Source: a virus (taxonomy: Duplodnaviria; Caudoviricetes). From it: a stretch of 59,242 nt of DNA. Numbering within the stretch: position 1 is the first letter of the stretch; every line of letters begins with the position of its first letter. Shown here one piece after another: positions 16,107 to 49,724 of this stretch. The notes under the pieces were generated by a model, which searched no databases, was not told the DNA's origin, and worked only from the letters and a program-made list of their open reading frames with translations. A program made the position numbers and the translations under genes. The stretch is taken from positions 1-59,242 of IMG/VR virus record IMGVR_UViG_3300036398_002697. The stretch is one strand, 5' to 3'.

Positions 16107-16134
16107 GAAGGAGGGGTAAAACCCTCCTTTTTTC
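16107..16134 (+). terminator. Rho-independent terminator after the peroxiredoxin
   Basis: AAGGAGGG-gtaaaa-CCCTCCTT followed by a T-run, then an ATAAATA late promoter (16135-16141). Confidence 0.8.
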
Positions 16135-16164
16135 ATAAATATAGTGCAGGGTTTAGATACAATA

Positions 16165-16863
16165 ATGCTCATAGATCTCCATAATTTTTTCAAGCACTAC
16201 GACGAAAAAAATCCAAAGCACGTTGCTGCTGTTGAGCAACTAGAAAAAGATTTGCAACTGAAAGCCCAAGATTTAATGCAAGATGATGCAAATTGGGTGA
16301 GAATTTATAGATCTAAAGAAGACAAACCTCAAACTTCAATTTTACAAGTTCCTTTTTATCCACAGACAGACAACTATAGAGATGCAAATAGAACTTGCAA
16401 CTCTTCTGCTTGTGCAATGTGCCTTGAGTATTTCAAACCCGGTACACTAAAAGGACCTAAAGGCGATGACGCCTATGTACAAAAAGTTTTCTCAATCGGT
16501 GACACAACTGACCACTTGGTTCAGACCAAAGTTCTTGCGTCATACGGTATTAAGTCCAGTTTCAGTTATAGCCTTTCTTTTGCTGATCTTGATAGAGAGC
16601 TTGCCTCTGGTAGACCTGTTGTTATTGGTATTCTTCATCGCGGTCCTCTATCGCGTCCCACAGGCGGACACATGGTAGTTGTGATTGGCAAGACCCCTTC
16701 AGGTGATTATGTGGTCAATGATCCATACGGTTCACTAAATGATGGATACACTGGTTCAGTTAATAATGGTAAGGGTGCTGTTTATAAGAGAAGCGAACTT
16801 TCTCGCAGATGGTGTCCAGGTGGTAATGATGGTTGGGGTAGATTATTTGATGCAAAAAAGTAG
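16165..16863 (+). CDS. C39-like cysteine peptidase, probable endolysin N-terminal part
   Basis: FYPQTDN..RTCNSSACAM, GGHMVVVIG and VNDPYG give the Cys-His-Asp triad. It lies downstream of a late promoter; ATG 16165 is preferred as the start. Confidence 0.8.
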   Translation: MLIDLHNFFKHYDEKNPKHVAAVEQLEKDLQLKAQDLMQDDANWVRIYRSKEDKPQTSILQVPFYPQTDNYRDANRTCNSSACAMCLEYFKPGTLKGPKGDDAYVQKVFSIGDTTDHLVQTKVLASYGIKSSFSYSLSFADLDRELASGRPVVIGILHRGPLSRPTGGHMVVVIGKTPSGDYVVNDPYGSLNDGYTGSVNNGKGAVYKRSELSRRWCPGGNDGWGRLFDAKK

Positions 16864-16895
16864 AAACGCCAACTAATAATGTTTCGTTAGTTGGC
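16854..16895 (+). promoter_or_regulatory. Candidate -1 programmed ribosomal frameshift cassette
   Basis: A_AAA_AAG (16854-16860), a 7-nt spacer, then a perfect 9-bp hairpin GCCAACTAA/TTAGTTGGC (16868-16895). Confidence 0.75.
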
Positions 16896-17339
16896 ATTAA
16901 ATTGATAAAAGAATTTGAAGGATGTCATCTGAATGCTTATCCTGATCCATTAACAGGTGGACTTCCAATCACTATTGGTTGGGGAAGCACTAAAGATTTT
17001 AATGGCGATTTCTTCAAACTTGGTAGAAAGATTACTCAAGAGTATGCTGATAAACTTTTGATATTTGATATTGAGCAAAGGTTTCTCCCTTCGCTACAAA
17101 AAATTCCATATTGGAATGAGATGAATGAAAACCAACAAGGTGCTCTACTATCTTTTGCTTATAATCTTGGTGCTCTCTTTTACGGGTCTTCTGGTTTCAA
17201 TACAATAACTAGAGTTCTTAAGAATAAAGAATGGAATAAAGTACCTGATGCTCTTTATCTTTATCGCAATCCAGGAACTAAAGTTGAAAAGGGATTAGCA
17301 AGAAGAAGAAAAGCAGAAGGTGATTTGTGGTCTTCTTAA
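16860..17339 (+). CDS. GH24 lysozyme domain, probably reached by -1 frameshift from the upstream peptidase
   Basis: VSLVGIKLIKEFEGCHLNAYPD..TIGWG, ALLSFAYNLG and GLARRRKAEG. Homology extends upstream of the annotated TTG 16902, which has no RBS. Confidence 0.85.
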   Translation, partial: VETPTNNVSLVGIKLIKEFEGCHLNAYPDPLTGGLPITIGWGSTKDFNGDFFKLGRKITQEYADKLLIFDIEQRFLPSLQKIPYWNEMNENQQGALLSFAYNLGALFYGSSGFNTITRVLKNKEWNKVPDALYLYRNPGTKVEKGLARRRKAEGDLWSS

Positions 17340-17662
17340 TCTTCTTCTACTTTTGTTCTTAACGCGATTACAGTAGTCAATATAGTTAATAAAGTTTCAT
17401 ATCCTCTTCTTTCAGATTCTTTACAATCTAAAGGAGGAGGATTTTTTAATTCTCCTTTTACATTTGCTTTATTGATTGTTCCTGGAACCATAAAGTTACA
17501 AGCAACAAAGTTAACGCCAACAAATCCAATAATAGAACAGCAAACAATAAAGATAAGTTTATTTAAAATAGAACCCTTTCTTCTTACCTCTTTTTGCTGG
17601 TCTTCTGATGAACCTGATGACTTCTGCTGGTTGTCTTTTTGGTTGAGGTCTTCTTCCTTCAT
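17336..17662 (-). CDS. Small membrane protein with two hydrophobic segments
   Basis: Hydrophobic stretches LIFIVCCSIIGFVGVNFVAC and LLTILTTVIAL; GAGG-type RBS upstream on the minus strand. Confidence 0.55.
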   Translation of the reverse strand: MKEEDLNQKDNQQKSSGSSEDQQKEVRRKGSILNKLIFIVCCSIIGFVGVNFVACNFMVPGTINKANVKGELKNPPPLDCKESERRGYETLLTILTTVIALRTKVEED

Positions 17663-18186: not shown

Positions 18187-19266
18187 ATGACTGCTACACT
18201 TTCACAACAACGACAATCAAATACTTGGGAACAATTCTGCCAGTGGATTACATCAACCGATAACCGACTCTATGTTGGTTGGTTCGGTACTCTGATGATT
18301 CCTACTCTGCTCGCAGCAGCAATCTGCTTCATCGTTGCGTTCATCGCAGCACCCCCCGTCGATATCGATGGTATTCGTGAACCTGTTGCTGGTTCTCTAA
18401 TGTATGGAAACAACATCATCTCTGGTGCTGTGATTCCTTCGTCCAATGCTATTGGACTGCACTTTTACCCAATCTGGGAAGCCGCTTCACTTGATGAGTG
18501 GCTTTACAACGGTGGTCCTTTCCAACTCGTTGTCTTCCACTTCCTGATTGGTATCTATGCTTACATGGGTCGTGAGTGGGAACTCTCTTACCGCCTAGGT
18601 ATGCGTCCTTGGATCTGCGTTGCATACTCTGCACCTGTTGCTGCTGCTTCTGCGGTGTTCCTGGTTTATCCTTTTGGTCAAGGTTCTTTCTCTGATGCGA
18701 TGCCCCTGGGTATCTCTGGTACTTTCAACTACATGCTTGTGTTTCAGGCAGAGCACAACATCCTGATGCACCCTTTCCACATGCTTGGAGTTGCTGGTGT
18801 GTTCGGTGGTTCTCTGTTCAGTGCAATGCACGGTTCTCTGGTTACTTCCTCACTGGTTCGTGAAACCACTGAGAACGAGTCACAGAACTATGGTTACAAG
18901 TTCGGTCAAGAAGAAGAGACCTACAACATCGTTGCTGCTCACGGTTATTTCGGACGCCTTATCTTCCAATATGCTTCCTTTAATAACTCACGTTCACTAC
19001 ACTTCTTCCTTGCTGCCTGGCCCGTTGTAGGCATCTGGTTCACCGCTCTTGGTGTATCCACGATGGCATTCAACCTCAACGGTTTCAACTTCAACCAGTC
19101 CATCATTGACTCACAAGGTCGTGTGCTCAATACCTGGGCCGACGTTCTGAACCGTGCAGGTCTGGGCATGGAAGTGATGCACGAGCGCAACGCTCACAAC
19201 TTCCCTCTTGACCTTGCTGCTGCTGAGAACACTCCTGTTGCTCTCACTGCACCTGCAATCGGTTGA
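18187..19266 (+). CDS. psbA: Photosystem II D1 protein
   Basis: Full-length, uninterrupted D1 ([24 protein letters not shown]). GREWELS gives Glu130, the high-light type. Confidence 0.99.
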
Positions 19267-49235: not shown

Positions 49236-49241
49236 GTTTTT

Positions 49242-49315
49242 GCCCGTGTGACCCAGCGGAATGAGGTTCTCGACTTAAAATCGAGCAGTCGGCGGTTCGA
49301 ATCCGCCCACGGGTA
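49242..49315 (+). tRNA. tRNA-Leu(UAA) with a short variable region
   Basis: Acceptor GCCCGTG/CACGGGT, anticodon arm CTCGA-CTTAAAA-TCGAG, T arm GGCGG-TTCGAAT-CCGCC; no encoded CCA. Confidence 0.88.
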
Positions 49316-49359
49316 TTAGAGTTCTACTCTAAATATTCAAAAGTAATAGGAATATTACT

Positions 49360-49630: not shown

Positions 49631-49704
49631 GCCCTTGTAGCTCAGTTGGATAGAGCAGGAATTTTGTAAATTTCAGGTCACCCGTTCAAGTCGGGTCAGG
49701 GGCT
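49631..49704 (+). tRNA. tRNA-Thr(UGU)
   Basis: Acceptor GCCCTTG/CAGGGGC, D arm GCTC/GAGC, anticodon arm GGAAT-TTTGTAA-ATTTC, T arm ACCCG-TTCAAGT-CGGGT. Confidence 0.9.
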
Positions 49705-49724
49705 CTGAGTTCTTTATAACTCCA

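Follow-up and report, generated by a model that had tools for sequence, protein, structure and literature searches.

A conserved, probable −1 programmed ribosomal frameshift between the peptidase and lysozyme frames of a cyanophage lysin gene

The IMG/VR virus record IMGVR_UViG_3300036398_002697 (59,242 bases, estimated to be 29% complete, and referred to here over its whole length as the window) carries a putative lysin gene in which a peptidase reading frame and a lysozyme reading frame overlap with an offset of −1, and this report concerns the way in which the second frame is probably expressed. On the plus strand, where all features of the junction lie, the 0-frame open reading frame (ORF; 16165..16863) begins with an ATG at 16165, a start position common to S-PM2, ACG-2014f, and nine IMG/VR homologues, encodes a 232-amino-acid (aa) peptidase, and ends GAT GCA AAA AAG TAG, with the TAG stop at 16861-16863. 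The heptamer A_AAA_AAG (16854..16860) stands in the 0 frame directly before this stop and is the proposed site of a tandem −1 slip of lysine transfer RNA (tRNA-Lys). It is followed, after a spacer of 7 nucleotides (nt), by a proposed stimulatory hairpin of 10 base pairs (bp) with an 8-nt loop (16868..16895), and it is preceded by GGGGT (16835..16839), a possible internal Shine-Dalgarno-like (SD-like) stimulator. The −1 frame contains a TGA at 16848..16850 and is open only 3' of this codon, from 10 nt before the 0-frame stop; the open stretch extends from 16851 to 17336 and, when read from 16860, gives VETPTNNVSLVGIKLIKEFEG and then continues into the lysozyme. The −1 frame ORF (16860..17339), consisting of a linker and a GH24 lysozyme, thus has 159 codons, no usable start, and a TAA stop at 17337-17339. 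A first-pass annotation of this DNA had drawn attention to the junction, and the peptidase end, the heptamer, and the TGA that it described are all exact on re-reading of the sequence, as is the distance of about 14 nt that it gave between GGGGT and the heptamer (14 nt when counted from the end of GGGGT).

Profile searches identify both enzymes. The peptidase matches PF13529 (Peptidase_C39_2) over residues 60-188, with an E value of 5.3e-14, 53.4 bits against a cut-off of 24, and coverage of profile positions 1-143 of 143; the cysteine of its TCNSSxCAM motif and the histidine of its GGH motif, which are invariant across 9 fusions, would form the catalytic pair, and a PDB sequence search with the peptidase gave no match at E values up to 1. 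The lysozyme accounts for the one PF00959 (Phage_lysozyme) match in the whole window (E 2.3e-22, 80.1 bits against a cut-off of 22.3, all 125 profile positions), and its EFEG motif, the glutamate of which we take to be the catalytic Glu of GH24, aligns with GFEG of the solved lysozyme 9kbq. Both ORFs are collinear on the 405-position family phrog_3617, the peptidase at positions 1-235 and the lysozyme at positions 248-405. The first approximately 58 residues of the peptidase (window 16165-16338) form a helical module that begins I-D-L-H-N-F-F-K and for which no Pfam or PDB match, and no usable ESM Atlas hit with residues 1-58, was found. An AlphaFold2 model of a natural in-frame fusion (L082), built with a 9-row alignment, had a mean predicted local distance difference test score of 60.1 and a predicted template modelling score of 0.41 and was too poor for a fold search. 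The endolysin label comes from the names of the families phrog_10051 and phrog_7, and no holin was identified; going by these family labels, the products may serve the phage in host lysis.

With regard to relatives, we classified 88 loci, comprising the window, 7 phage loci, and 80 loci from IMG/VR, which were the best of at least 598 matches found there to the window's peptidase and showed 77-94% identity to it; the search of phage genomes yielded 61 records by blastn, all of them Synechococcus kyanoviruses, and 105 by tblastn. The lysozyme lies in the −1 frame and overlaps the peptidase end in 61 of the 88 loci; the others carry a peptidase without a lysozyme within the flank (19), an in-frame fusion (4), separate genes (2), or a reversed fusion (1), or run off the contig (1). 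An in-frame slippery heptamer is present in 56 of the 61 −1-overlap loci (A_AAA_AAG in 55 and T_TTT_TTT in S-CAM7), and the five without a heptamer are all ATG-started. These 56 heptamer loci divide into 44 in which no NTG overlaps the stop, designated here as start-less, and 12 with an NTGA overlap (8 ATGA, 3 GTGA, and 1 TTGA). The stop, which is TAG in 38 start-less loci and TAA in 6, follows the heptamer directly in 41 of the 44. The first-pass annotation had named conservation of the heptamer and of the frame offset among homologues as a check on its proposal, and both are found, together with the stop and the absence of an ATG for the −1 lysozyme, in 44 of the 88 loci.

The seven phage loci illustrate the range of arrangements. 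In S-PM2, for which two records agree, the peptidase ends GAT GCA AAA AAG followed by TAA, the −1 lysozyme is start-less, and the downstream stem has a different sequence. In S-CAM7, for which a second isolate agrees, the junction reads GTT TTT TTT CCA CAG TAG, the −1 frame opens just before the T8 run, and a stem begins 5 nt after it. S-SRM01 has the heptamer and an ATG overlapping the stop (ATGA), ACG-2014f encodes a single in-frame protein of 405 aa, S-CREM1 has an in-frame fusion in the reverse order, and DSL-LC02 and DSL-LC03 have separate genes. No joined or slipped coding-sequence annotation was present among the phage records examined. The GenBank 'lysin' of S-PM2 and S-CAM7 is a C-terminal lysozyme piece of 72-90 aa called from an internal ATG (L002 2457-2675; L005 2244-2516; L088 1699-1917), and phrog_10457 (95 positions, 'endolysin'), which matches only this C-terminal piece, may be a family built from truncated gene calls.

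The heptamer is constrained at the nucleotide level beyond what coding requires. Lys-Lys may be preceded by V, A, E, or T, but the codon for this variable residue ends in A in 43 of 43 start-less A-heptamer loci, the codons being GTA for 24 of 24 valines, GCA for 15 of 15 alanines, GAA in 2 loci, and ACA in 2, with S-CAM7 as the T-run exception; across the same genes, only 26% of valines are encoded by GTA and 41% of alanines by GCA. The heptamer's final G is doubly constrained, because a conserved Val codon of the −1 frame begins with it. Neither a Lys-Lys tail nor a heptamer occurs in any of the 27 loci outside the heptamer-bearing classes. By contrast, GGGGT is uninformative as a stimulator, because GGGG at 16835-16838 encodes the conserved Trp-Gly of a GWGR motif and is equally present in loci without the frameshift layout.

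The downstream stem provides a further line of evidence. The arms GCCAACTAA and TTAGTTGGC (16868-16895) form the perfect 9-bp hairpin that had been reported 7 nt downstream of the heptamer, and ViennaRNA adds a tenth pair (U-G); the predicted free energy is −13.9 kcal/mol, with a z of −4.08, and no equally stable fold arose among 200 dinucleotide shuffles. When each junction is folded, a stem is found a few nt after the heptamer in nearly all start-less loci, and at least four families of unrelated stem sequence occupy this same position, namely the window type (GCCAACTAA / TTAGTTGGC), a second type (AATCAACACCACA / TGTGGTGTTGATT), the S-PM2 type (AACTCTACTCC / GGAGTAGAGTT), and the S-CAM7 type (GTAGAACC / GGTTCTAC). 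In every family the 3' arm encodes part of the first lysozyme helix (L-V-G of this helix in the window), and the 5' arm, which matches it by complementarity whatever its sequence, falls within the variable linker. The 38 unique start-less junctions have a mean minimum free energy of −16.5 kcal/mol and a median z of −3.8 against dinucleotide shuffles and −2.2 against synonymous shuffles, and for 21 of the 38 no shuffle of 200 folds as well; for the 10 unique junctions with their own NTG start, the corresponding values are −7.6 kcal/mol, −1.2, and −0.5, although two of these (L063 and L051) resemble the start-less type.

Stems were assessed by folding of each sequence with shuffles and by alignments within families, since stem registers differ between families and no single covariation test spans them; a single consensus structure for all 38 unique junctions was dropped for the same reason. 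As to stem covariation, which the first-pass annotation had named as a check, compensatory double changes occur in 4 of 14 pairs in the largest stem family and in 0 of 10 pairs in the window's own family, in which eight one-sided changes preserve pairing (G-U). Covariation within families is thus modest, and the stronger arguments are the replacement of stems between families and the link between a stem and the lack of a start. An Rfam scan of 16700-17000 gave 0 matches at E values up to 1.

A second lineage reached a similar layout with a different heptamer. A search with the S-CAM7 peptidase yielded 25 loci, among which L091 (98% identical peptidase) and L092 (88%) retain the T8 run together with the hairpin and a lysozyme in the −1 frame, the stem of L092 showing one G-U change. 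Of the others, eight with 66-70% identity to the S-CAM7 peptidase encode in-frame fusions, six that are more distant combine A_AAA_AAG and TAG with a hairpin, and nine are unclassifiable (two off the contig end and seven matching in part or not at all). The layout holds in peptidases down to 53-58% identity. In a tree of 103 peptidase sequences, from which the trait's own columns were removed, the T8 group forms one clade (support 100) nested within in-frame fusions (support 99 and 96). Occurrences of the A-heptamer layout are scattered over the other large clade; the tree requires 16 changes to account for them, well-supported branches forcing at least 6, and the peptidase-only, ATG-coupled, and separate forms arise within this A-heptamer clade. 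These data suggest as a likely origin that an in-frame fusion lost (A-run) or changed (T-run) one homopolymer base and was rescued and kept by slippage, with stems that may have evolved or been retained to raise slip efficiency; as the tree was midpoint-rooted and made with a quick method, this direction of change is our inference.

Taken together, the conservation in 44 of 88 loci, the constraint on the heptamer, the rebuilding of the stem, the T8 lineage, and the in-frame relatives lead us to regard a conserved −1 programmed ribosomal frameshift of the dnaX/IS3 type, yielding a 232-aa peptidase and a 391-aa fusion, as the probable explanation of this locus, and the comparative data favour the earlier proposal that one gene gives two products through a −1 slip at A_AAA_AAG with a 3' stem. 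Under this mechanism, ribosomes translating the peptidase ORF of a presumably late transcript would meet A_AAA_AAG (16854-16860) while the hairpin (16868-16895) is at the messenger RNA (mRNA) entrance. Most would terminate at the adjacent TAG and release the 232-aa protein made up of the N-terminal module and the C39-like peptidase, and a fraction would slip both tRNA-Lys back by one base and continue to a 391-aa protein made up of the N-terminal module, peptidase, linker, and GH24 muramidase. The muramidase would exist only as a fusion, because its frame is without a start of its own. The occurrence of slippage is read here from comparative sequence data, and a slip efficiency that fixes the product ratio, so that recoding sets the dosage of lysis enzymes, may go with it, as the first-pass annotation suggested.

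Decoding in plausible relatives of the host is compatible with such a slip. A_AAA_AAG is shifty in Escherichia coli because AAG is read by a single tRNA-Lys(UUU). We surveyed a complete Synechococcus chromosome and a Cyanobium draft genome, both with a psbA 92-93% identical to that of the window, in which tRNA-model matches numbered 44 and 39, respectively; among the 35 and 29 matches of class-I length that were examined (9 and 10 matches of 82-89 nt being left out), ARAGORN assigned to each genome one tRNA-Lys(UUU), no tRNA-Lys(CUU), and one tRNA-Phe(GAA). The window itself contains phage tRNA genes for Leu(TAA) at 49241-49316 and Thr(TGT) at 49631-49705 and none for Lys.

Several observations weigh against a programmed frameshift. 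The bare heptamer occurs at chance frequency, with 34 copies of AAAAAAG in the window against 33.8 expected, and the combination of heptamer, stop, start-less −1 ORF, and hairpin is non-random because it is conserved in homologues and for no other reason. The loci compared are related and were picked as best matches, so their counts are not independent events and describe one clade. The heptamer persists in the 12 loci with their own start and is therefore not exclusive to start-less genes. With regard to the stem, the window's own family lacks compensatory double changes, registers differ between families in the 38-junction alignment, the median z against synonymous shuffles is only modest, and the coding of a conserved helix by the 3' arm means that the stem is partly kept by the protein. 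The two genomes surveyed for tRNAs are plausible relatives of the host rather than the known host, and the metatranscriptome run X15 covers only 16500-16642, which is outside the junction. Finally, some relatives carry the two enzymes in frame with one additional A, which could mean variation of run length at the DNA level.

This last point leads to an alternative in which the ribosome does not shift at all: polymerase slippage or DNA run-length variation would add one A or T and thereby produce fused mRNAs or genomes. Three contigs (L073, L074, and L082) have A7 rather than A6 at their junctions (at about 2190-2200), and they are in-frame fusions that encode exactly the predicted trans-frame product and retain the downstream hairpin; L073 and L074 fall in a clade (support 99) with frameshift-type rows, L082 is basal, and their A7 could be either real variation or an assembly homopolymer error. 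In addition, the T8 run of S-CAM7 is near the length range of known RNA polymerase slippage. However, an A6 run is short for efficient polymerase slippage, and the run is constant where it could be compared. Over window 16846-16875, contigs from three lake-water metagenome runs, which belong to three studies and one of which may be the window's own source, show 0 other letters, 0 gaps, and no listed indel, and thus only A6, although contigs drop and so hide rare variants; A6 is identical in two S-PM2 records, one of them re-sequenced, and T8 is identical in two S-CAM7 isolates. The A6 run is therefore not an assembly slip, the possibility that the first-pass annotation had wished to see checked. 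Moreover, added bases leave unexplained both the hairpin 5-8 nt downstream and the restriction of strong stems to loci in which the lysozyme is start-less, and we consider this explanation unlikely, though less so for T8 than for A6.

A further alternative is that the lysozyme is made as a separate protein, either by termination and reinitiation near the TAG or from a weak or non-canonical start such as the TTG at 16902. The two enzymes can function without being joined, as is seen in relatives with ATGA or GTGA overlaps or with fully separate genes, and the window does have a TTG (16902..16904, plus strand) 6 nt before the catalytic motif. This TTG is the sole ATG, GTG, or TTG ahead of the motif in the window's −1 frame and is not conserved in homologues. 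The description of it in the first-pass annotation, as the only candidate start and as lying within a conserved helix, is borne out: it is residue 15 of the −1 read, and solved GH24 lysozymes align from residue 8, so a start there would remove the first helix present in those structures. An ATG before the catalytic motif is found in 0 of the 44 start-less loci, and in 28 of them there is no ATG, GTG, or TTG at all before the motif. Independent initiation also leaves the invariant third-position A before Lys-Lys unexplained, and it would be impeded rather than aided by a stable hairpin covering the restart region; on this evidence a separate lysozyme in the start-less loci is quite unlikely.

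The start-less lysozyme frame is not that of a dead gene but is under purifying selection: it is open in 44 of 44 loci, over 156-172 codons, and the ratio of nonsynonymous to synonymous substitution rates (dN/dS) has a median pairwise value of 0.165 and a 95th percentile of 0.269 (832 pairs with usable dS), from which we conclude that the downstream frame is alive. A decaying gene in which a homopolymer indel has left the lysozyme unexpressed, or a wrong A6 call, is accordingly very improbable, since, even though homopolymers are hot spots of both mutation and error and in-frame relatives lie one A apart, it is contradicted by these intact and selected frames, by a layout kept across such divergent peptidases, and by the agreement of the S-PM2 records, the S-CAM7 isolates, and the three metagenome runs.

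If a programmed frameshift operates, the N-terminal module of the peptidase may be the reason for the fusion, as a part needed by both enzymes. Long separate lysozyme genes often have their own or a distant copy of this module (DSL-LC02 and DSL-LC03, L064, L076, and L078), with copies before the lysozyme at 2340-2560 in L004 and 2083-2300 in L007, and the short ATG-started lysozymes of L001 and L043 are without it. In DSL-LC02, the peptidase and lysozyme genes are separated by a 129-aa ORF (L004 1947-2336), the N-terminus of which resembles a signal peptide; DSL-LC03 lacks this ORF.

The proposed mechanism has well-known counterparts. Sites of this type have an X_XXY_YYZ slippery heptamer in the 0 frame and a stimulatory RNA structure at a spacing of about 5-9 nt, and the window shows both, the structure as predicted by folding in silico. 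In E. coli dnaX, which encodes tau and gamma, A_AAA_AAG is accompanied by a stem-loop a few nt downstream and a G-rich stretch upstream, and only tRNA-Lys(UUU) is available; the present locus shares the heptamer, the downstream stem-loop, and the upstream G-rich stretch, and the two picocyanobacterial genomes share the sole tRNA-Lys(UUU). Unlike in dnaX, where the shifted product stops almost at once and is the shorter one, the shifted product here would be longer and would gain an enzyme domain, and the SD-like element is inseparable from coding constraint. An upstream SD-like stimulator is present in dnaX and IS911 and is not obligatory. The OrfA/OrfAB arrangement of IS3-family elements (IS911, IS150, and IS3) is similar in that A_AAA_AAG stands close to where the upstream ORF ends, the downstream ORF is start-less and overlaps in the −1 frame, a 3' structure is present, and the products are the short protein alone and a fusion with a catalytic downstream domain; it differs in that the product is a transposase rather than a lytic enzyme of a virulent phage, and no pseudoknot is evident here. 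The tail assembly chaperone G/GT is likewise a conserved −1 slip of double-stranded DNA phages that gives a short and a C-terminally extended protein and keeps its position across divergence, but it concerns another gene with other slippery motifs, and its product is a structural assembly chaperone in place of a peptidoglycan hydrolase. The in-frame 405-aa protein of ACG-2014f and PHROG 3617 have the same three modules in the same order, which is reversed in S-CREM1; in contrast to the frameshift loci, such fusions need no recoding, and a single product is possible.

The nearest published case appears to be Alteromonas virus vB_AspP-H4/4, for which one sentence in a genome announcement (PMC5658483) predicts that a −1 slip joins an endolysin gene to the gene of an internal virion protein (genes 39/40). 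It resembles the present locus in that the predicted slip starts in a gene annotated as an endolysin, and it differs in that the phage is a podovirus, the downstream gene encodes an internal virion protein, and the prediction, as given there, comes without comparative or experimental support. Full-text literature searches, in which the S-PM2 genome paper and all supplements were out of scope, revealed no account of a cyanophage lysin with a frameshift; the main text of Sullivan et al. 2010 (PMC3037559) contains no mention of lysin, lysozyme, frameshift, or lysis, and the portion covered of a 2016 recoding review (PMC5009743) contains none of endolysin, lysozyme, or cyanophage. The remark in the first-pass annotation that it knew of no such case for cyanophage endolysins agrees with the literature to this extent, and while the mechanism is known from dnaX, IS3 OrfAB, and tail chaperone G/GT, its use in a cyanophage lysin thus appears to be undescribed.

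With regard to genomic context, the neighbouring genes in the window include those for ferredoxin, hli, peroxiredoxin, and psbA, which indicate a T4-like cyanophage. The psbA gene (18187-19266) is 93-94% identical to those of Cyanobium and Synechococcus genomes, and the best-matching sequencing runs for the window are lake-water metagenomes, so the host is probably a freshwater picocyanobacterium. Upstream of the lysin gene and 3' of the peroxiredoxin gene, a terminator-like hairpin and T-run (16113..16133, plus strand; stem 16113-16125, followed by CCTTTTTT) would set the lysin gene apart from the upstream unit, and CATAAATA at 16134..16141 (plus strand) presumably resembles the T4-type late promoter, the consensus of which we take to be TATAAATA. 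The peptidase-only loci L030-L035, L042, L044, L052, and L058 end in GWGRVFQP or a close variant, and after their stops there is a conserved TATAAATA-containing stretch, which we take to resemble a T4-type late promoter for the next gene. On the other side of the lysin gene, a convergent 108-aa ORF (17336-17662, minus strand) overlaps the lysozyme stop by 4 nt, has one hydrophobic stretch resembling a membrane span, and is kept in S-PM2 (110 aa; L002 2672-3004, minus strand); it had no PHROG family match and, because of its position adjoining the lysin, is a candidate for a lysis-associated membrane protein.

The lysis of picocyanobacteria by T4-like cyanophages ranks among the major routes by which carbon is released in oceans and lakes, yet the lysis genes of these phages are poorly characterised. 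One possible extension of the frameshift interpretation, which we put forward as a doubtful one, is that the slip site is a tunable lysis valve coupled to host physiology and not just a repaired indel. In that event, the site would set the stoichiometry of free peptidase to bifunctional peptidase-muramidase and would have arisen at least twice from in-frame fusions (in the A-run and T-run clades), and its efficiency may track the translational state of the host (tRNA charging or modification, nutrients, light), because it would depend on a single tRNA-Lys(UUU) or tRNA-Phe. The strength or timing of lysis would then depend on the physiology of the host in what are the most abundant phototroph-phage systems of marine and fresh waters. 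The frameshift interpretation is itself testable in a cultured system, S-PM2 on Synechococcus WH7803. If it is true, the lysin of S-PM2 and of many uncultured relatives is mis-annotated as a hypothetical protein and a truncated 'lysin', the true muramidase being made only through recoding, and both gene callers and PHROG-type clustering would gain from its recognition. The lysin genes of these cyanophages would then represent a new, widely conserved family of phage frameshifts outside structural genes and transposases and, with their in-frame, A6 or T8 slip, ATGA-coupled, and separate forms, would provide a natural series for the gain and loss of recoding sites.

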